Shown here: one piece after another, positions 9,788 to 22,217 of the stretch | Layout: every line of letters starts with the position of its first letter | Position numbering within the stretch: position 1 is the stretch's first letter | IMG/VR virus record: IMGVR_UViG_2693429700_000019 | Reading direction: 5' to 3' (one strand) | DNA: 22,217 nt | DNA from: a virus | Lineage: Duplodnaviria > Heunggongvirae > Uroviricota > Caudoviricetes | The notes under the pieces: generated by a model | What the model was told of the DNA's origin: nothing | The model's input: the letters and a program-made list of their open reading frames with translations, nothing else | Databases searched by the model: none | Program-made: the position numbers and the translations under genes

Positions 9788-11539
9788 ATGATTCAGGACG
9801 CTTTTGTGCGCCAGCGTGCGCGGCAACTTTACTGGCAGGGTTATCCGCCCGCAGAAATATCACGTCTGATGGGAATAAACCCGAACACGATTTATGCGTG
9901 GAAAAAACGCGACCAGTGGGATGAAACGCCACCCGTGCAGCGTGTCACGCAGTCCATCGATGCGCGCCTCATCCAGCTTACTGAAAAACAGAATAAAACA
10001 GGTGGTGACTTCAAGGAAATAGACCTGCTGACCCGGCAGCTTAAAAAGCTGCATGATGGCCAGCCGGATGTGATGGCCGCAGGAAAGAAAGGCCGGGCGA
10101 AAAAACTCAAAAATCATTTCACGCCGGAACAGATTGCCGCACTGCGGGAAAAAATCATCAGCAGGCTGGAGTGGCATCAGCGGGGCTGGTTTGACTCCCT
10201 GACCCTTTGCAGGGAAGCCGGGATACGTAACAGGATGATCCTGAAATCCCGACAGATTGGGGCGACCTGGTATTTTGCACAGGAAGCACTGCTGATGGCG
10301 CTGCGTGACGATGTGGCACAACCTTACCAGCGTAACCAGATTTTTTTGTCTGCGTCGCGTCGTCAGGCGTTCCAGTTTAAAAGCATTATTCAGAAGGCTG
10401 CGGCTGAAGTTGATGTGGAGCTGAAAGGGGGCGATAAAATCATCCTCTCCAACGGCGCAGAGCTGCATTTTCTTGGTACTTCTGCTGCGACGGCACAGTC
10501 CTACACGGGCAATTTTTATTTTGATGAATTTTTCTGGGTCAGTCGCTTTGCTGAACTGCGCAAGGTGGCTGGCGCTATGGCAACCCTCAGCGGACTGCGG
10601 CGCACCTACTTCTCCACGCCATCCACCGAAACGCACGAGGCATACGCCTACTGGAATGGCGACCGCTGGAACGAGAAAAAGGCCACGCATAAACGCCAGC
10701 GTTTTTCTGTGGACTGGAAAACGCTGCATAACGGGCTTATCTGCCCTGACCGGACGTGGCGGCAAATTGTCACGCTGGAAGATGTGGTTAATCACGGCTG
10801 GAAACACACCGATATTGACGAAATTCGTGATGAAAACACCGAAGACGAGTTCCGCAATCTCTATATGTGTGAGTTTGTCCGCGAAGGGGAATCGGCATTT
10901 AACCTGAATATCCTGATTGGCTGCGGTGTTGACGGATACGACGACTGGAAAGACTGGAAACCTTTTGCTCCCCGCCCGATGGGAAATCGTCCGGTATGGA
11001 TTGGGTATGACGCAAACGGCAGCAGTGGAAACGGCGACAGCGGCGCTGTGTCCGTGGTGGTTCCTCCGGCTGTTCCTGGAGGCCGTTTTCGAACGGTGGA
11101 GACGCGACGCGTTCAGGGGCTGGAGTTTGAAGAACAGGCCAGAGTCATTGAAGAGTTCACGTGTCGCTACAACGTGGAACACATCGGCATTGATGTGACG
11201 GGCGAGAACGGGGAGGCTGTTTATCAGATAGTGAAACGGTTTTTCCCTGCTGCTATTCCGTACACCTTCACGCTGTCATCAAAACGGTCGCTGGTACTGA
11301 AAATGCTGCAAATAATGCGTGCCGGGCGGTGGGAATATGATCGCGCCGAACGCGAGCTGGTCGCAGCCTTTAACGCCGTGCGTAAGGTGAAAACACCGGG
11401 CGGCTTTATCACTTACGAAACGGACCGTGCGAGGGGGATCAGCCACGGCGACCTTGCGTGGGCAACCATGCTTGCTGTCATTAACGAACCGATTGGCGGC
11501 GAAGGGGAAAACGAGCGTTTTACGGTTATGGAGTTCTGA
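9788..11539 (+). CDS. P: Terminase large (ATPase) subunit gpP
   Basis: 583 aa; size and position as in P2 P; 1-nt overlap with the portal start (TGATG at 11537-11541). Confidence 0.85.
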   Translation: MIQDAFVRQRARQLYWQGYPPAEISRLMGINPNTIYAWKKRDQWDETPPVQRVTQSIDARLIQLTEKQNKTGGDFKEIDLLTRQLKKLHDGQPDVMAAGKKGRAKKLKNHFTPEQIAALREKIISRLEWHQRGWFDSLTLCREAGIRNRMILKSRQIGATWYFAQEALLMALRDDVAQPYQRNQIFLSASRRQAFQFKSIIQKAAAEVDVELKGGDKIILSNGAELHFLGTSAATAQSYTGNFYFDEFFWVSRFAELRKVAGAMATLSGLRRTYFSTPSTETHEAYAYWNGDRWNEKKATHKRQRFSVDWKTLHNGLICPDRTWRQIVTLEDVVNHGWKHTDIDEIRDENTEDEFRNLYMCEFVREGESAFNLNILIGCGVDGYDDWKDWKPFAPRPMGNRPVWIGYDANGSSGNGDSGAVSVVVPPAVPGGRFRTVETRRVQGLEFEEQARVIEEFTCRYNVEHIGIDVTGENGEAVYQIVKRFFPAAIPYTFTLSSKRSLVLKMLQIMRAGRWEYDRAERELVAAFNAVRKVKTPGGFITYETDRARGISHGDLAWATMLAVINEPIGGEGENERFTVMEF

Positions 11540-12585
11540 TGAGCAGAAAAAATAAAAAAGTGCGCATGAGTTCACGCATTGATCTCGCTGATGCGCTCAG
11601 GAAAGAATCATCGCTCAGTGCATTCACATTTGATGGTCCTTATCGCCTGACCGGGCATGACCTGCTGGACAATATGTACTGTGCTGATAACGGGCGGTGG
11701 TATGAAACCCCGGTGGACTGGTACGGTCTGGCAAGAGCCGCCCGGCAAACGTCCTGGCATCAGTCTGCGCTTTACTTTAAGCGTAATGTATTGCTCGGGT
11801 GCTACATCCCGCACCCGCTGCTTTCCCGGCAGGATTTCTCGGCGCTGGCGCTGGACTGGTTTGTGTTCGGTAACGCATTCCTTGAGCTTCGGAGCAATAT
11901 GCTCGGCGAACCGCTTAAATTACGGCACGCCCTGGCGAAATACATGCGACGCGGAAGCGATCTTGAATCATGGTGGTATGTGCAGGATGGCAAGGACGCG
12001 TTCCAGTTTCGCCCTGGCAAAGTGTGCCACCTGATGAATCCGGATATTAACCAGGAAATCTACGGCATGCCGGAATATCTTGGCGCATTACTCTCGGCCA
12101 GCCTTTCTCATTCGGCGGACATGTTCAGAAAACTGTATTACGACAACGGATCCCACGCCGGGTGCATCATCTACATCGGTGCAGCGCAGGTAAACCGCGA
12201 AAGCATGGACTCCCTGAAAGAAACGTTACAGGGTGCGCGTGGTGGTGGTGCATTTAAAAACGTGCTCATTCATGCGCCCAACGGGGGCAAAGAAGGGGTG
12301 CAAATTTTGCCGTTCCAGCAGATCACCGCAAAGGATGAGTTCATGAATGTTAAGGCGGCATCCCGTGATGATGTGCTGGCTGCGCACCGCGTTCCGCCGC
12401 AACTGATGGGGGCGATGCCGGGCGAAAAAAGTGCGTTTGGTGATGTGGAGAAGGCCGCGCGGGTTTACGCAATTAACGAGCTGATGCCCGTCATGGAGGC
12501 CATGAAGCACATCAATGACTGGCTTGGCGAAGAGGTGATCCGCTTTAACCCTTACGCACTGTTAGACACCCAGCCCACATCCTGA
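11539..12585 (+). CDS. Q: Portal protein gpQ
   Basis: 348 aa, coupled downstream of P; P2 Q is portal and has the same size/position. Confidence 0.85.
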   Translation: MSRKNKKVRMSSRIDLADALRKESSLSAFTFDGPYRLTGHDLLDNMYCADNGRWYETPVDWYGLARAARQTSWHQSALYFKRNVLLGCYIPHPLLSRQDFSALALDWFVFGNAFLELRSNMLGEPLKLRHALAKYMRRGSDLESWWYVQDGKDAFQFRPGKVCHLMNPDINQEIYGMPEYLGALLSASLSHSADMFRKLYYDNGSHAGCIIYIGAAQVNRESMDSLKETLQGARGGGAFKNVLIHAPNGGKEGVQILPFQQITAKDEFMNVKAASRDDVLAAHRVPPQLMGAMPGEKSAFGDVEKAARVYAINELMPVMEAMKHINDWLGEEVIRFNPYALLDTQPTS

Positions 12586-12612
12586 CGCGCTTCGCTTGTC
12601 TGCTGCTTCGCC

Positions 12613-12635
12613 GGGGCATAAAAAATTTATGCCCC
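12613..12635. other. Perfect 10-bp-stem palindrome ggggcataaa-aaa-tttatgcccc, 28 bp after Q stop (possible Q terminator or cos-associated element)
   Basis: Read directly; no U-tract on either side. Confidence 0.5.
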
Positions 12636-13033
12636 GACTCTCCAGCTCCTGTATCAGTCAGATAATTTCACGATGCTTTCCTGCTGATTGCCATCATCGA
12701 CAGTCAGACTCTTACGCAATCCCACCGCGTTGACTGCATGTTCTCGCCGTCTCAGTGCGATTTTGACGGCCTTACCTTTCACCCCATCAAATCAAAAGCC
12801 CTCACGTCTTTTTCACGCTCAGCGTGAGAAATACAGCCATTCTGTTCTATCTCTGCGACATCGTTCAGGGAATGCTATTTACCCCCTGAAACGCGGGCTG
12901 TTCCCCCGTCACCTGCGCGCAGAAAAAACGCGTTTTTTTGTGCACGTACGGATCCTTGACGGATCCAGCCACCACGCGGGCCGGAAGTACAAAAAGTCGT
13001 TCAAAAAAATTGTGCAAACTTGTGCACTATCGT

Positions 13034-13063
13034 GCAAACAAAAAAAGCGCCTTATCGGCGCTT
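13034..13063 (-). terminator. Rho-independent terminator (minus strand) just downstream of the 89-aa gene
   Basis: Minus-strand RNA forms aagcgcc-gataa-ggcgctt followed by TTTTTTTGTTTG. Confidence 0.7.
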
Positions 13064-13071
13064 CAAAAGTA

Positions 13072-13341
13072 TCAATTGTTGCTGTTTATTAATCGCCAAC
13101 CACGAACATATGCTTCATAGGCATCTCTGTGCCTTACAGTTCCAGCCTGGCTAAACGGAATGTTAGCTAAAACTAAATCATTCTGAGCCATAGCGCGTCC
13201 TTCAAGCGCATCTTTTATGCCTAGCTCAAAAGCACAGGCAGCGCATTTGTGCCGACCTTCTTGTCCTTGATATTCAGGGAGAGACAGAAATGTTGGATTA
13301 TAACGATGAGGGTTCTTGCAAATACCTGTTTTAGCCCGCAC
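13072..13341 (-). CDS. Hypothetical small protein (89 aa) with Cys/His cluster; GTG start
   Basis: ORF with SD-like gaggt upstream of GTG; contains C8, H12, H41-K-C43-A-A-C46; followed by a clean intrinsic terminator. Not recognised by me. Confidence 0.5.
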   Translation of the reverse strand: MRAKTGICKNPHRYNPTFLSLPEYQGQEGRHKCAACAFELGIKDALEGRAMAQNDLVLANIPFSQAGTVRHRDAYEAYVRGWRLINSNN

Positions 13342-13470
13342 TTTATTTACCTCATAGGAAAAATATGCGTGCCTTTACAGAGGTGCGTGTAAGCAATAAA
13401 ATATACGACGCACATTTTGATTTACTTCGGAAGGCACGCATATCAGGTTAAGTGAGTCCGACCGAGTTTT

Positions 13471-13500
13471 ACGCCCCAATAGTTGCTGCTATTGGGGCGT
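13471..13500 (+). other. 12-bp-stem hairpin acgccccaatag-ttgctg-ctattggggcgt with short flanking T runs (weak terminator-like or structural element)
   Basis: Perfect inverted repeat read from sequence; TTTT before and TTT after on plus strand. Confidence 0.4.
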
Positions 13501-13705
13501 TTTGCATGGACAATGCCGCGCAATTATCTTGTCGCTCACAATGCGAACGATCTTACAAAAAGGCACATTACTGTCAAGATAATTGATCGTTTTAATCGAT
13601 AGATAATAGACAATCTATTTGTTTAACAGATCGATTATTGAAGTAAGTGTGCCAAATGGAATGATACTGTCTCTATAAACGTGAGCATTTTTCGCGCAGA
13701 TGCTT

Positions 13706-14017
13706 TTACTCAGGAAATAACGCCCGGATATTCCCAGCCATCTGGCTGGTTATCTTAGCCACTGGTGCAGACTGTGCTTCAAACTTTTTTGAGCTGATTT
13801 GTGTCACAGGTAACATCTCATCATCAGCCCATGCGGCCAGTCGGTAAGCCTCTGCCGGATTCGTCTTCAGAAGTGCCAGCCCGGCCAGAAAAGCCACGCG
13901 TTGGCCGCTTTTGCGGGCTTCTGGTGTAAGGCTGTCCAGCCAGGCGCATGCTTCTCCTTCGTTCTTGACGGCGGCGGGCTTCAGATAGAAACTTATCCGT
14001 CTGGTTGGTGTCGTCAT
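13706..14017 (-). CDS. parR: ParR/StbB-like centromere-binding adaptor (type II partition), 103 aa
   Basis: From Met MTTPTRRISFYLKPAAV..WLDSLTPEARKSGQRVAFLAGLALL.. ; resembles plasmid R1 ParR N-terminal region as I recall it. aaggag SD lies inside the last codons of the upstream ParM gene. Confidence 0.7.
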   Translation of the reverse strand: MTTPTRRISFYLKPAAVKNEGEACAWLDSLTPEARKSGQRVAFLAGLALLKTNPAEAYRLAAWADDEMLPVTQISSKKFEAQSAPVAKITSQMAGNIRALFPE

Positions 14018-14021
14018 TGGT

Positions 14022-14981
14022 TTACTCCTTGTCCATTGCGTACAGCCCATTAACCAGAGCAAACTGTGGCACCCCGTCCGCGATGAAAGTCGCATTAACT
14101 CCGCAGGCTTCGCGGATAGCGGGTGCCACAATCTCCGCCCCGCCACCGACAACCATCACCCGCCCGTAACCCGAAAAAACCGCCAGCGCGCGGATCACGC
14201 GTTGTTTCAGTGTTTCTTCCTTTTCACGAATAACCGCCATCAGGCTGGCGTAATGCGCGTCATTGTGGATGTGCTGGCGCAGCCAGGCTTCATTATGGCG
14301 ATGTTCGATAATGGTATTGGCGATGTGGTGACTGGTGCGCATACCGTTAGTGGCCATCACCGACAGTACGGCATCGGCCATAAGAGAAACGCCTACGTGT
14401 GGATCGCAAAACACCTGGCTGATACCTGCCAGTTGCCCCTGAACCTTTGCCACATCCAGCGTGGTTCCGCCCAAATCCACAATCAGCAGGGATTCAAACG
14501 GACTCATGTCAGCCAGTGCTTTAAAGCCAGCCGGAATGGATTCAGGCATAACCCGTACGTTACGGATAGTGAATGCTTCGCCGTTCTGGTACTCCACCGG
14601 GCGCATGACGTTCGCTTTTTTGCGGTTGATGTTGGCCATGTCCGGCTGTGCGTTTGTGTCGAAATATTCGCTCAGTGGCAGGGTAACAACCACATCCACT
14701 TCCTGTGGCGTGATGTCTGATTTGACCAGCGCGTGATGAATGGCAATGACATTCACATCGCTGTACTGGTATTGCGTGTCGGTCGTCTGGACAAAGCGAT
14801 CGCTGACCGGATCAAAACCATAGCGCACGCCATCAAGCATGTAGTTAGCAGGCTGCGAGCCACCGAACGGCGCAGACCATTCCGACTTGAAGCTGTTCGG
14901 GCTGATGGCGTTGCGGCGTTCGCCGTTCTCAGTCCATGCCAGCTTGATGTTGGTGGAGCCGTCGTCGATGTAAATTTTCAT
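14022..14981 (-). CDS. parM: ParM/StbA-like actin-family segregation ATPase, 319 aa
   Basis: Actin-fold signature motifs IDDGSTNIKL (phosphate 1), LIVDLGGTTLDV (phosphate 2), VMVVGGGAEI (adenosine) and overall colinearity with plasmid R1 StbA/ParM as I recall it. Confidence 0.85.
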   Translation of the reverse strand: MKIYIDDGSTNIKLAWTENGERRNAISPNSFKSEWSAPFGGSQPANYMLDGVRYGFDPVSDRFVQTTDTQYQYSDVNVIAIHHALVKSDITPQEVDVVVTLPLSEYFDTNAQPDMANINRKKANVMRPVEYQNGEAFTIRNVRVMPESIPAGFKALADMSPFESLLIVDLGGTTLDVAKVQGQLAGISQVFCDPHVGVSLMADAVLSVMATNGMRTSHHIANTIIEHRHNEAWLRQHIHNDAHYASLMAVIREKEETLKQRVIRALAVFSGYGRVMVVGGGAEIVAPAIREACGVNATFIADGVPQFALVNGLYAMDKE

Positions 14982-15012
14982 GTCGGTTTTCCTTATGTTG
15001 ATTAATTAATCG

Positions 15013-15125
15013 TTTACGGGATTCTGAAATCCCGTTTTTGCCTGTTTTGTGCGCGCTTCATATATCGCTGCGCGTTTTTTGCTCATTTACGGGATTCGTG
15101 AGTCCCGTTTCTGTCTGTTTTTTGT
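15013..15125. repeat. Two ~38-bp direct repeats, each with an internal hairpin and T-rich tail, spanning the A stop codon and the A-parM intergenic region
   Basis: tttacgggattctgaaatcccgtttttgcctgttttgt (15013-15050) and tttacgggattcgtgagtcccgtttctgtctgttttttgt (15086-15125); internal dyads acgggatt/aatcccgt and acggga/tcccgt. Confidence 0.7.
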
Positions 15126-17880
15126 TTCCACTGGTCAGGCCACCCCGCAGCAGGTCTGCTTTGCGGCTGGCGCGTTCAGTGGTTTCACTGATTCTCTGTG
15201 CGTGCTCTGCGTCGCGGATGGCGCGCAGCATGTCAGAAAGCACGGTAACGGGTGTTTTCATGGTGTTCTGGTCCTGCTGAAGTGTGGATGCCAGGCGTGC
15301 GGCGGCTTCAGGGTCTGATGCCCCCAGCTGTGCCAGATAGCTGGCGACCGGGTTATGGCGGATCTCCGTGCTGCTTACGCCATGATTACGGCTCAGACGC
15401 TGCCAGAGCTGCGTGATTCGGCTGTCCGGGCGGGTATCCGGTTTGCGTACAATTTCAAATCCCTGCGGTGCAATGATGCTGCCGTCAACGTACAGACTGC
15501 CGCCCCGTAACAGGTGCTGCATCTGTTGTTCACCGATATGCAGGCCGAGAGATTCAGCAGACTCCCGCCATTCTTTAGCGAGTAACTCGTGGTTATCAGG
15601 CAAAGGCCGCTGCTGTTTGCGGCTCTGTGTCCAGTTCTGCATTTCATCGCTGCTGTTTTTTGCCTGTTTGTCACGAAGCGAACGCATCAGCGCCCGGCGT
15701 TCGTGCCGTTTCAGTGAGCGCATCCATTCATTTACTTCAACGCCGTCAGGAAGCTGCGGCCACGGTGCTGGCCGTTCTTCCGGCTGTTCTGTCCCGTTGT
15801 TGCCTGTTTCCTGTACACGGGGACAGTTATTGCCACGAGTCCAAGGGGCGGCAGGGCCGCCCTGAAGGTCAAAACCATTTTCGCGGGCGCTGTCTTCCGC
15901 TTCCGGTTTACGTCTTACCAGCTTCCAGTTATCCGGATGCGTGCACACACGGGAGGATTCCCCGATGAATGGCGACCAGATCCCGTAAATCTGTACACTC
16001 TGTTCGCCGTAATCGTTCAGCTCATCTGCGAGGTCGTAGGCTGTGCGAATCAGGTAGTCCTTGCGCGGAACAAGTACGCCACCCTGTTTTTCAATGTAGG
16101 TGGCAAAACATCCGGCATCAGCGGCAGCGAGTACCGCATCCATTGCGTCATCCTTCAGCCGTTGCGGGCCTTCCGGGTTGCGTGCCATCTGGCTGGCAAG
16201 GCGGCGGAGTTCACGCCACACCTGACGGGAGGGGATGCCAAAGAACTGGAACTGGCGGACCCGGTGAAGGCGCGCCCAGCCGATGGCTCGCTCCACGCTC
16301 TCGGCCATTGATTTACCTGTTTCGTGGTCAACGCGTGGCTTGCCCGTTTTCGGGTCGATGCCATCCACGGCGCGGCTGTCCAGGTTCTTTCCGATGTAGG
16401 TGGCGATGTAGCTGGTTGGCGTGCCTTTTGAGCCGTCGACGTACTCCGCCTTAAAGCGTGGGGTAATATCATCACCCAGCTCGTGACGATCTTCCTGAAT
16501 GGCAATATCGCGGGTGTGGGACACAATGGTGTCGATTTCTTCCGGATGAGCAAAGACCATCATATGCCAGTGCACGGTGCCGTCATGGTGAGGCTCCACC
16601 GTGCGGATGCCATACCAGCGCAGGCCGTCGCGGTTCAGTTTCTTGCGGACCGCTGCAAAAAACGTGTTAACCAGGTAATCGCTGGAGTCGCGCATGGTGG
16701 CCCCGTTCCATTTGGGATTCGGATGACCGTTCTCTGTTGTGGCGTGGTATTTTGACGGGCAGGTGACAGTTAGAAACACCGCTTTGTCGCCACGGGCTTC
16801 GGCCAGAAGTTCCAGCCCCTTCATGGTGGCCATCATTTCTGCCTTACGGTGAACCGGGTTACTTACTCCCGCGTAATACACTGTCTCGAGATCAATCGTG
16901 AACCCGTCTTCGTTTTCCAGCATGAAACTTTTCAGGAAATCGCGTGTTTTCTCGCGCTGTGCGCGAAACTCGCTTAACGCGTCCTGGCTCAGATAGGGTG
17001 ATGTTTTTCTGGAAACCAGACAGGCGGCGCGGAGTTGTTCTTCTCTCCACTCGCAACGTAACAGCCACAGTTTGCGTTTCCACCATTCCGCACAGGTCAG
17101 GCGAAGGATTGCGCCCGGCAGCAGCTCCGTGTCCGGTTCGTTCCTCCGGTCTTTATCTGTTGTCAGTGCGTCATAATGTGGAGGCATGATGTGCAGGTGT
17201 AACGCCATGCGGGCCAGCATCTGATACGCCTTCAGCGTTACATCCATGGTCAGTTCGCCATCGGTCGCGCCAAAGCCATCGCAGAGTTTTTCGAAGGTGC
17301 TGCTGAACATCGCCGCCGTCATGGTGGCCAGCGTCTGTATCTGGTGTTTGTTGAGCTGCGGCAGGTAAAGCAAATCGTCCAGGCGTTCGCGTCCGGCAAG
17401 GGAGCGATAACCCGGTGTCAGCCAGTGTCCGTCAGTGCGATCCAGACGTTCGAATATTTTGCGCAGGGTTCCGCGTGCATAGCGTTCCGCCTGCCAGCTC
17501 TTTTTGCCTTTCCGGCGATCGGCTTCCTGTTTTTTGCGCAGGAAGGAGAGGTGGCGAATAAGCGGATCGCGCAGATAGGACGGCAGCAGGCGCAGCGAGG
17601 CCATGGCTTCATCCACCGCGCCGCGTGCCTGTTTTCTGGCGTCTCCTGCCAGTGTGATGGTTTTGTCCTGTTTTTCCTGTGCGTCCAGGCTTTTATTAAT
17701 CAGGTTGCCCAGTGGCGTGGCGGAGAACGCCGCATCAGCCATTTCCTGGCGGCGCTCGTTCTCTACCCGGTAGGCATCCAGCCAGGAGGAAAGCGCGGAT
17801 TCAGGAGCGGGGATCCCCGTTCCTTCACGCCCCACTGCGTGGCGCGGTTGTTGCCAGTCCCTGATGTACTCTGCCGTCAT
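15058..17880 (-). CDS. A: Replication initiation protein A (HUH rolling-circle endonuclease, P2 gpA family), 940 aa
   Basis: HUH-type motif ..DGTVHWHMMVFAHPEE.. and catalytic tyrosine motif ..SYIATYIGKNLD.. in the middle of the protein; position upstream of the cargo locus and downstream of early small ORFs as in P2. Confidence 0.8.
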   Translation of the reverse strand: MTAEYIRDWQQPRHAVGREGTGIPAPESALSSWLDAYRVENERRQEMADAAFSATPLGNLINKSLDAQEKQDKTITLAGDARKQARGAVDEAMASLRLLPSYLRDPLIRHLSFLRKKQEADRRKGKKSWQAERYARGTLRKIFERLDRTDGHWLTPGYRSLAGRERLDDLLYLPQLNKHQIQTLATMTAAMFSSTFEKLCDGFGATDGELTMDVTLKAYQMLARMALHLHIMPPHYDALTTDKDRRNEPDTELLPGAILRLTCAEWWKRKLWLLRCEWREEQLRAACLVSRKTSPYLSQDALSEFRAQREKTRDFLKSFMLENEDGFTIDLETVYYAGVSNPVHRKAEMMATMKGLELLAEARGDKAVFLTVTCPSKYHATTENGHPNPKWNGATMRDSSDYLVNTFFAAVRKKLNRDGLRWYGIRTVEPHHDGTVHWHMMVFAHPEEIDTIVSHTRDIAIQEDRHELGDDITPRFKAEYVDGSKGTPTSYIATYIGKNLDSRAVDGIDPKTGKPRVDHETGKSMAESVERAIGWARLHRVRQFQFFGIPSRQVWRELRRLASQMARNPEGPQRLKDDAMDAVLAAADAGCFATYIEKQGGVLVPRKDYLIRTAYDLADELNDYGEQSVQIYGIWSPFIGESSRVCTHPDNWKLVRRKPEAEDSARENGFDLQGGPAAPWTRGNNCPRVQETGNNGTEQPEERPAPWPQLPDGVEVNEWMRSLKRHERRALMRSLRDKQAKNSSDEMQNWTQSRKQQRPLPDNHELLAKEWRESAESLGLHIGEQQMQHLLRGGSLYVDGSIIAPQGFEIVRKPDTRPDSRITQLWQRLSRNHGVSSTEIRHNPVASYLAQLGASDPEAAARLASTLQQDQNTMKTPVTVLSDMLRAIRDAEHAQRISETTERASRKADLLRGGLTSGNKKQTETGLTNPVNEQKTRSDI

Positions 17881-20394: not shown

Positions 20395-20682
20395 CTAAAG
20401 TCCCAGCCACAACAACCATGCGTCGCGGCGTTCTTTCGGTTGCTCAAAAAACGCTTTGCGCATGCCTTCGTTAAATGCTGGCAGATATACCCAGTTTTCT
20501 GATGCACGCGTCTTTACTGAACCTGGTTTCACAAAGTCAATTGTTGGTAGCTTTGCTGCGTCAATCATGGTTCTGACTGTGGATTCCTTGCGGCCGATCA
20601 TCTTGGCGAATAGTTGATATGGCACCGCTTCAAGTGGATATGGTGCTACCTGAATGAACCCCCCAAGCTCTGATTCGCTCAT
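20395..20682 (-). CDS. cox: Cox-like excisionase / early-promoter regulator
   Basis: ..VPYQLFAKMIGRKESTVRTMIDAAKLPTIDFVKPGS..ENWVYLPAFNEG..RDAWLLWLGL closely parallels P2 Cox as I recall it; divergent from C. Confidence 0.85.
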   Translation of the reverse strand: MSESELGGFIQVAPYPLEAVPYQLFAKMIGRKESTVRTMIDAAKLPTIDFVKPGSVKTRASENWVYLPAFNEGMRKAFFEQPKERRDAWLLWLGL

Positions 20683-21116: not shown

Positions 21117-21212
21117 GGCCAGAAAACTGGTTAGACCTGCTTTTTGTCTGGTCTGATTATTGCTGGAAAGAGGCTGGAGAAATTGTAGAGCGGTTCATTG
21201 GAGGGCTTCGTA

Positions 21213-22217
21213 ATGTCGATTAAGAAGCTCGAAGATGGTCGTTATTTGCTGGACATCAGGCCGAACGGACGCAAGGGAAAGCGCGTGCGTAAGGTATTTG
21301 ACAAAAAATCGGTAGCGGTGGCCACTGAACGCTACATCATGGCGAACGCTGAAAAGCGGGAATATATACAGGGCTACCGTGATCGTCGAACGCTAAATGA
21401 TTTGCTTGAGTTGTGGTGGATGTATCACGGCCAGCACAGGCGTAAGGCGGAAGAAGACCGAAAACAACTGCGCAACATAATCAATGAGCTTGGCGCTGAT
21501 ATGCAGGCTGTGGATCTTGATAAGCTGAAAATTATCGCGTGGCGTTCTCAAAAGATAGCTGATGGATTGAAACCGTCATCTGCTAACAGGTACATGAATC
21601 GGTTATCCGGAATGTTTACCGTGCTGAAAAAAATAGGTCTTTGGGATGCAGAACATCCAGTAAGGGGAATTTCTATTCTTTATGTATCTCCACGAGAAAT
21701 GGCGTTCCTGTCACAGAAGGAAGTGGCGCTATTGCTCGATACACTGGAGGGCGACTACTGGCGTGTTGCGCTTTTGTGTTTAAGCACAGGGGCGCGCTGG
21801 AGTGAAGCTTGTAAGCTTCGTGGTGAACAGATAGTTCATAACCGTGTAACGTTTCTTGAAACCAAAAATGGCCGGAAGAGAACAGTGCCAATTTCGCAGG
21901 CAGTTTGTGAGGCGATCAAAACCAGAGAAACAGGCGGCTTGTTTGAGGTGAAGTACCGGGAATTCTGCCTGGCGCTGAAAAGAGTTAAGCCCGATTTACC
22001 AAAAGGCCAGGCTGCACATGTGCTGCGGCATACGTTCGCCAGCCATTTTGTGATGAACGGAGGAAACATTATTGCGCTTCAGAAGATTCTTGGTCACGCA
22101 ACCATTCAGCAAACAATGGCATATGCGCATTTTGCACCGGATTACCTGCAGGATGCGGTGGCCCTTAATCCGCTGAAAGGTGGCGTAAGTGTCCACGCAG
22201 TGTCCACGGGGGATTAA
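21213..22217 (+). CDS. int: Tyrosine integrase, P2 Int family
   Basis: MSIKKLEDGRY..RPNGRKGKR.. N-terminus and C-terminal ..LCLSTGARWSEA..HNRVTF..KNG..RTVPIS....HVLRHTFASHFVMNGGNIIALQKILGHATIQQTMAYAHFAPDYLQDA.. (R...H-x-x-R...Y catalytic pattern). Stop is the last codon of the window. Confidence 0.9.
   Translation: MSIKKLEDGRYLLDIRPNGRKGKRVRKVFDKKSVAVATERYIMANAEKREYIQGYRDRRTLNDLLELWWMYHGQHRRKAEEDRKQLRNIINELGADMQAVDLDKLKIIAWRSQKIADGLKPSSANRYMNRLSGMFTVLKKIGLWDAEHPVRGISILYVSPREMAFLSQKEVALLLDTLEGDYWRVALLCLSTGARWSEACKLRGEQIVHNRVTFLETKNGRKRTVPISQAVCEAIKTRETGGLFEVKYREFCLALKRVKPDLPKGQAAHVLRHTFASHFVMNGGNIIALQKILGHATIQQTMAYAHFAPDYLQDAVALNPLKGGVSVHAVSTGD

Follow-up and report, generated by a model that had tools for sequence, protein, structure and literature searches.

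The DNA analysed here (IMG/VR record IMGVR_UViG_2693429700_000019; 22,217 nucleotides, referred to below as the window) is a P88-like prophage of Escherichia coli, a member of the P2 family (genus Xuanwuvirus, Peduoviridae). It encodes an integrase, a repressor-like helix-turn-helix protein, and Cox, followed by an unbroken minus-strand early operon that ends with the replication gene A, parM, and parR. The gene order is Q, variable slot, parR, parM, and A, which places the two partition genes, collectively parMR, inside the gpA-gpQ interval (Table 1). A first-pass annotation of the window, made from its letters alone, had described the pair as a complete ParM/ParR actin-type partition module occupying the tin/old cargo slot of a P2-family prophage. 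We examined the two gene products, the repeats upstream of parM, and the association of the pair with A.

Products of parM and parR

The parM product had been assigned to the R1 ParM/StbA type on the basis of three motifs, and this assignment was confirmed. The open reading frame (ORF) contains IDDGSTNIKL, LIVDLGGTTLDV, and VMVVGGGAEI, and the protein carries the phosphate-1 (DxGxxxxK), phosphate-2 (DxGGxTxD), and adenosine (GGGA) motifs expected of a type II ATPase. The profile searches that had been proposed as a check gave significant Pfam matches for both proteins, namely StbA_N (E = 9.7e-81) and ParM_N (E = 3e-68) for ParM and Plasmid_stab_B (E = 9.8e-24) for ParR, the latter also matching PHROG 2515 ('partition protein'). 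A scan of NCBIfam gave only sub-threshold matches for ParM and none for ParR or A. In a Protein Data Bank (PDB) search, residues 1-316 of ParM were aligned with R1 ParM structures (1mwk and others) at E = 7.7e-92. Furthermore, the residues of the three nucleotide-binding motifs (D6, D7, G8, S9, T10, D169, G171-T174, D176, and G279-A282) were invariant among 16 homologs with identities down to 48%. The gene was intact in all 81 copies sampled, and its median ratio of nonsynonymous to synonymous substitution rates (dN/dS) was 0.06 over 54 distinct alleles, indicating strong purifying selection.

The start codon of parR follows the TAA stop codon of parM by 4 nt, and an AAGGAG Shine-Dalgarno sequence lies within the 3' end of parM; the coupling of parM to a ParR/StbB-like protein of 103 amino acids noted in the first-pass annotation was thus borne out. 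When the single ParR sequence was used, nothing was found in the PDB. With a profile of ParR relatives, the best and sole meaningful match was ParR/StbB of pB171 (2JD3; residues 10-74), with a weak E value of 0.0034. ParR was also 34% identical over 56 amino acids (E = 2e-8) to an R1-type ParR read from locus L118. Judged by sequence, ParR starts with a ribbon-helix-helix-type domain, which a hypervariable linker connects to a conserved tail, NIxALFPE, at the C-terminus. The near-invariant parts were the beta-strand region (R6-P14), much of the helical core, and the C-terminal N-I-x-x-L/F-F-P, and the tail residues N96, I97, F101, and P102 were invariant. In R1 ParR, the N-terminus reportedly binds DNA and a flexible linker leads to a C-terminal helix that binds ParM; the conserved-variable-conserved pattern observed here is the layout expected of a ParR. 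At the sequence level, the product has the properties of the adaptor in such a system, being small, encoded directly downstream of the ATPase gene, and equipped with a conserved C-terminal tail.

In parR, dN/dS was 0.11 over codons 1-62 and 0.28 over the C-terminal part, and both parM and parR are under purifying selection. ParR fell into at least three deeply diverged allele classes (approximately 100, 83, and 55% identity), whereas the adjoining ParM proteins were 98-100% identical. These classes were seen at positions 13706-13962 of the window and in loci L002, L026, L041, L090, and others. The DNA similarity breaks at approximately codon 18 of parR, suggesting a recombination boundary inside the gene.

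Paired palindromes upstream of parM

The hairpin-containing direct repeats that had been noted at the 5' side of parM were found to be two 42-nt copies, 81% identical and 73 bp apart, each of which contains the palindrome ACGGGAyT..TCCCGT. When searched as YGGGW-N8-WCCCR, the motif occurred at just these two places in the window; shuffled windows contained 0.22 matches on average, and two matches were reached in 2 of 100 shuffles. Within the 300 bp upstream of parM, the motif was present exactly twice in E. coli (-125 and -52), Plesiomonas (-131 and -59), and Hafnia (-128 and -55), with spacings of 73, 72, and 73 bp, respectively. In all three lineages the distal copy lies within the 3' end of the upstream ORF, and the peptides encoded there are unrelated. 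The motif was also located upstream of every type-A phage parM examined. The half-site of the motif, (A/T)CCC(G/A), is similar to ACCCA, the core of ten 11-bp iterons upstream of an R1-type parM. In the Serratia and Enterobacter phages, whose ParR beta-strand is NRKISFYL, not TRRISFYL, the upstream region has one large inverted repeat and other repeats instead. The locus contains two conserved and correctly placed palindromes with R1-like half-sites as candidate sites, and the canonical array of approximately ten iterons is absent. The two palindromes are likely to be the ParR-binding parC of this lineage, as a bipartite palindromic variant of the R1 design.

Two other assignments of the repeats were rejected. 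For the repeats as the replication origin of A, the nick site of P2 aligns approximately 700 bp away: A of the window is 31% identical to P2 A, the P2 nick codon 620 aligns with residues ~676-690, and the nick region of the origin is predicted near 15810-15855. For the repeats as a conserved protein-coding signal, the C-termini of A differ fully between E. coli and Plesiomonas, whereas the DNA motif persists.

A natural variant was also observed, in which one IMG/VR locus among L004-L083 has a single repeat copy 5' of parM. The unit of 73 bp between the two copies seems to have been deleted there, a change that would also alter the C-terminus of A. In the sense RNA (14972-15135, minus strand) the two palindromes can pair over a long range, with a minimum free energy of -34.2 kcal/mol (z = -4.0), as is expected for two similar palindromes.

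Table 1 Features of the window around the parMR cassette.
Feature	Position	Strand	Description
parR	13706..14017	-	103 amino acids; centromere-binding adaptor by homology
parM	14022..14981	-	319 amino acids; actin-fold segregation ATPase, homolog of R1 ParM over its full length
Proximal 42-nt repeat	15010..15051		Palindrome CGGGATTTCAGAATCCCG at 15016-15035, 52 nt 5' of the parM ATG; candidate parC half 1
Distal 42-nt repeat	15083..15124		Palindrome CGGGACTCACGAATCCCG at 15089-15108, within the last 22 codons of A; candidate parC half 2
Replication gene A	15058..17880	-	940 amino acids; GPA rolling-circle initiator (PF05840 Phage_GPA, E = 5.8e-132)
Variable cargo slot	12586..13705		From parR to portal gene Q; 89-amino-acid ORF with its own promoter and a small-RNA-like unit
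Portal gene Q	11539..12585	+	Pfam Phage_portal; far edge of the gpA-gpQ interval
cox	20395-20682	-	Every early gene from cox through parR has this strand
Integrase	21198-22217		Retained together with Cox and the repressor-like protein

Association with the replication gene A

As the first-pass annotation had stated, both genes lie downstream of A on the same strand; A is directly upstream of parM and was confirmed as a member of the GPA family. A promoter/terminator scan of the minus strand between A and parM found no terminator-like site and no sigma-70 consensus promoter, including the ParR-autoregulated promoter within parC that characterises type II systems. Because neither element was detected, parMR are probably co-transcribed with A from the early promoter, in agreement with the co-transcription proposed earlier. 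The operon structure further suggests that parMR would be on after infection or induction and silent in the repressed prophage. The A protein is longer than that of P2 (940 versus 761 amino acids), and the residues past ~708 (15058-15760 of the window, minus strand) had no P2 counterpart in BLASTP.

The gpA-gpQ interval, occupied in P2 by orf91, tin, and old, has been published as a defence hotspot (PMC9122126, PMC13586616). The description of parMR as an occupant of the tin/old cargo slot was correct in that a complete ParM/ParR module lies between gpA and gpQ of a P2-family phage; its presence, however, did not vary among close relatives. The parM start was located exactly 80 nt past A in 63 of 64 close IMG/VR relatives, whereas the distance from parR to the portal gene took 33 values among 56 relatives, from 993 to 4176 bp. 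A survey of relatives had been suggested to see whether the slot exchanges parMR for other cargo; all 14 phage records with this type of A carry parM. Among 50,697 phage records, ParM homologs (E <= 1e-10) were found only in 14 P88-like records and the phage-plasmid D6, and these 14 were exactly the records with an A at least 80% identical. In the next A lineage (Gegavirus, 42-43% identity), the slot contains DinI and a TIR protein, with no parMR. In E. coli, 1279 genomes had a near-full-length parM compared with 1321 that had most of this A type (~97%). These results indicate that parMR is nearly fixed within the replication module and is not variable cargo, and that the truly variable slot starts after parR. 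Of the alternative raised in the first-pass annotation, a fixed core gene of the lineage with a known replication role, the first half describes the pair and the second does not.

Near-identical prophages adjoin yecA in E. coli chromosomes, where the NCBI pipeline names the products 'plasmid segregation protein ParM' and 'plasmid partitioning/stability family protein'. Among complete E. coli genomes, parM was present in 1303 of 5426 (~24%), including O157:H7 and ST131 strains, with up to three copies of the cassette per genome, and 1441 of the 1443 parM places were chromosomal.

The association extends across genera. The nearest ParM proteins outside E. coli (53-62% identity) were all in P2-like prophages of Plesiomonas, Hafnia, Serratia, and Enterobacter, with the syntenic order gpA, zero to two small ORFs, parM, parR, cargo, and portal. 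In a scan of one genome per species, all genes for ParM proteins at least 57% identical adjoined gpA, and none of those at or below 52% did. In a neighbor-joining tree, the phage ParM proteins grouped together with R1 ParM elsewhere, with bootstrap values of 66% for the whole group and 100% for each of its two sub-clades. These findings point to one or two old acquisitions followed by evolution within phages, not to recent capture. In Escherichia albertii (L090), A and ParM were 98% and 99% identical, respectively, and the portal protein just 30%. Similarly, in the mosaic phages L090, L026, L050, L053, L082, and L083, A and parM were 96-99% identical while the portal and terminase were 30-36% identical, so that the replication-plus-par module, as judged from these comparisons, recombines as a unit with different head modules.

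Several further observations were made on these loci. The mosaic loci contain a third YGGGW-N8-WCCCR copy approximately 3.9-4.3 kb downstream of the parM start, which in L090 is inside the terminase gene. Enterobacterial parMR was encountered in assemblies labelled as Gram-positive, namely L091 (Vagococcus sp.), L118 (Clostridiales metagenome-assembled genome, MAG), L120 (Streptomyces morookaense), and L133 (Lachnospiraceae MAG). L091 has a P88-type A, ParM, and portal; L118-L120 cluster with R1 ParM, and the ParM ORF of L118 differs from R1 ParM by a single residue. The parMR genes of these four assemblies are probably contamination.

The genes after parR differ among EC958, P88, and pZ1323PEC0009-2. 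In the slot of the window, the 89-amino-acid ORF (13072-13341, minus strand) belongs to PHROG 3941, whose function is unassigned, and had no match in Pfam or PADLOC; in relatives it co-occurs with the ParR allele of 100% identity. Its promoter (13577 to 13550) overlaps an 11-bp perfect inverted repeat (13521-13531 / 13575-13585), and its terminator is at 13064-13044. The small-RNA-like unit (13360-13510, plus strand) has a sigma-70-like promoter, TTTACA-17-TAAAAT (13374-13402), bracketed by a perfect 13-bp inverted repeat (13363-13375 / 13431-13443), and an intrinsic terminator (13471-13500) with a T-run. A search of Rfam over 12500-15300 gave two sub-threshold ctRNA/sar-like matches only, both to the terminator hairpin. 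The corresponding slot of relatives, which follows A if parMR is missing and parR otherwise, contains a KAP NTPase (L148, 7411-8757), a HicAB toxin-antitoxin system (L089, 9450-10084), or a TIR-domain protein (L084, 9305-10738), which fits the idea of a defence hotspot. A search of the window for P2 cos allowing up to three mismatches gave no match.

Possible roles of the cassette

The cassette resembles parMRC (stbAB) of R1/R100 in the full-length alignment of ParM with the same nucleotide-binding motifs, the tightly coupled order of parM and then parR, the N-terminal domain of ParR, the C-terminal K/R-x-N-x-x-x-L tail, the repeated cis-elements with a CCC-containing core 5' of parM, and a homologous ribosome-binding region, CATAAGGA. 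In contrast to R1, where the system is on a plasmid, the phage cassette is carried by an integrating phage, and ParM is only ~50% and ParR ~34% identical. R1 has two blocks of five 11-bp direct iterons flanking the promoter; the phage has two 18-bp palindromes 73 bp apart, one of them inside the upstream gene, with no consensus promoter found. The similarity to pB171 ParR (2JD3) is limited to the weak profile match described above. Compared with tin/old of P2, which occupy the same interval as variable, separately promoted, convergent defence genes, parMR is fixed beside A on the same strand with invariant spacing, and variable cargo appears only past parR. In the P1-like phage-plasmid D6, whose ParM/StbA homolog has 47% identity, a partition system is expected because the prophage is a 91-kb extrachromosomal plasmid; P88-like phages, in contrast, integrate.

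Taken together, these findings suggest that the cassette is probably a functional type II (ParMRC-like) system fixed at the distal end of the early/replication operon of P88-like and related P2-family phages. It is very likely that the parMR segrosome works at all. P2-type replication yields monomeric circles, which are the type of substrate moved by ParMRC. The closest functional precedent, and the sole experimentally studied parallel found, appears to be AlpAC/alpS of the integrated Corynebacterium glutamicum prophage CGP3. There, a filament-forming actin-like protein is co-transcribed with a DNA-binding adaptor whose binding sites lie upstream, and the pair connects the circular DNA of the phage with actin-like filaments (Donovan et al. 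2015, PMC4446434). Induction of AlpAC comes early after excision, and the circular phage DNA does not replicate efficiently without it (PMC4446434). AlpAC belongs to another phage family in another host phylum and has the gene order alpA-alpC, and its function has been demonstrated by experiment, whereas the resemblance to parMR concerns architecture alone and the timing of parMR is deduced from operon structure. This precedent, the monomeric circles, and the position in the operon together favour a role in the extrachromosomal, replicating phase.

The most likely role, at somewhat less than even confidence, is that the cassette disperses or partitions the monomeric circular genomes produced by P2-type rolling-circle replication. 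In this mechanism, ParR dimers would bind the two palindromes, which are approximately 7 helical turns apart, to form a centromere complex, and ParM filaments would capture the ParR-centromere complexes and push sister circles apart. Because no promoter of its own was detected, the cassette would be expressed with A, only while the phage is extrachromosomal and replicating after infection or induction. Partition of the circles could then improve replication and packaging, or secure inheritance by both daughters before integration. A broader and more speculative proposal is that P2-family phages have their own ancient ParMRC clade with a minimal centromere of two palindromes overlapping the 3' end of the rolling-circle initiator gene. 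Expressed with gpA, it would serve not for plasmid maintenance but as a cytoskeletal organiser that separates or positions the monomeric circles, and it would measurably raise burst size or lysogenisation frequency in the P2-like prophages of a quarter of E. coli strains.

Several points weigh against this interpretation. Literature searches on P88/Xuanwuvirus ParM found no functional experiment on the cassette, and it is not obvious why partition would be needed in a lytic cycle, in which the cell dies. The centromere is atypical, with two palindromes against approximately ten direct iterons, and may not support filament capping; the binding of ParR to the palindromes is itself deduced from sequence. 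The Serratia and Enterobacter relatives are without the YGGGW-N8-WCCCR motif. The AlphaFold2 (AF2) model of the ParR monomer, from a 21-sequence alignment, had low confidence (mean predicted local distance difference test score, pLDDT, of 59), and the order of elements in this low-confidence model agrees with the layout of a DNA-binding N-terminus, a linker, and a C-terminal helix. With respect to expression, a weak or non-consensus promoter 5' of parM may be present, and an Enterobacter relative has a plausible promoter read by eye (TTTAAA-17-TATAAA).

The first-pass annotation had considered a dual lifestyle, a hypothesis already published by Rousset et al. 2022 (PMC9122126): the element would be a facultative plasmid prophage, and where attB, for instance, is missing or already taken, the cassette would keep an excised or non-integrated genome as a stable low-copy plasmid. 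In favour of this, the partition system is complete and of plasmid type, D6 uses a ParM homolog, and the record deposited as plasmid pZ1323PEC0009-2, a circle of 34,461 bp, comprises a whole P88-like phage genome. A Shigella 'plasmid' record of 26.8 kb was a further match. None of the 21 PLSDB plasmids with a parMR-less P2-type A was a phage-sized record (2 of 7 versus 0 of 21, Fisher p = 0.056). However, the integrase, repressor, and Cox are retained, near-identical prophages are integrated beside yecA, and more than 99.8% of the copies in complete E. coli genomes are chromosomal. The same phage as pZ1323PEC0009-2 is integrated in another strain, and the circular contig may just reflect spontaneous induction in the sequenced culture. 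'Escherichia phage 520873' was rejected as an episome, since the linear record is an in-silico excised integrated prophage that includes the host yecA flank. Furthermore, no promoter specific to the cassette was found, and its expression would imply A-driven replication, which in P2-type phages is presumably part of the lytic programme. Stable plasmid maintenance thus seems rather unlikely as the purpose of the cassette, even though the circular record lends it some support.

The other alternatives were less convincing. The repeats could be RNA or transcription elements, acting as tandem terminators against antisense plus-strand transcription into A or in mRNA processing or stability, with the true ParR site elsewhere or lost. 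On the plus strand, T-runs follow both hairpins with a terminator-like score, the sense RNA folds unusually well (z = -4.0), and some variants keep the sense-strand pairing through G-U. In Plesiomonas and Hafnia, however, no T-run is present and the stems are reduced to 3-4 G-C pairs, too short for a terminator, around loops of 8-10 nt, although both lineages keep GGG-N10-CCC, the arrangement in two copies, and the spacing of 72-73 bp. This pattern is more readily explained by a protein-binding site than by an RNA hairpin, and the half-site resembles the R1 iterons, which makes an RNA role unlikely. A conflict function by incompatibility or exclusion, in which ParR or the centromere-like sites disturb the partition of R1/IncFII-type plasmids or of co-resident related phages, could draw on the resemblance of the half-site to the R1-type iteron core ACCCA, on the diverged ParR alleles next to nearly identical ParM, and on the presence of up to three copies per genome. 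Against this, ParR is just 34% identical to R1-type ParR with a different beta-strand sequence, dN/dS of its variable part is 0.28 and not above 1, and lysogens probably keep the cassette repressed. All ParR allele classes share a conserved beta-strand and conserved palindromes, and thus centromere specificity is not what diversifies; we regard conflict as very improbable. Least credible of all is defence, with the actin-like ATPase repurposed against phages in the manner of other gpA-gpQ hotspot occupants. The location of the pair inside the defence-hotspot interval would be in keeping with this idea, but PADLOC (E <= 0.01) gave no match for ParM, ParR, A, or the 89-amino-acid ORF, the pair does not vary among close relatives, its orientation and spacing are those of a part of the A operon whereas tin/old are transcribed convergently, and all canonical features of a segregation pair are retained.

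The cassette and the hypothesis of a dual lifestyle are already known from routine annotation and from Rousset et al. 2022, whose hotspot tables list StbA and Plasmid_stab_B arrangements in the gpA-gpQ interval (PMC9122126); a 2026 survey of P2/P4 hotspots does not mention parMR. The fixation of parMR beside gpA, the phage-specific grouping of ParM across genera, the conserved bipartite palindromic site, and the contrast between conserved ParM and polymorphic ParR appear to be undescribed. For surveys of the gpA-gpQ "defence hotspot", the boundary in this lineage should be set after parR.

Approximately a quarter of complete E. coli genomes thus carry a cassette that poses a puzzle, in that strong purifying selection maintains a plasmid segregation machine in a phage that integrates. 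If the cassette acts on replicating circles as preferred here, it would be a Gram-negative, genetically tractable counterpart of AlpAC, and the capping of ParM filaments by ParR could be studied on its bipartite palindromic site as a compact and unusual centromere. Type II segrosomes would then belong to phage replication biology and not to plasmid biology only.

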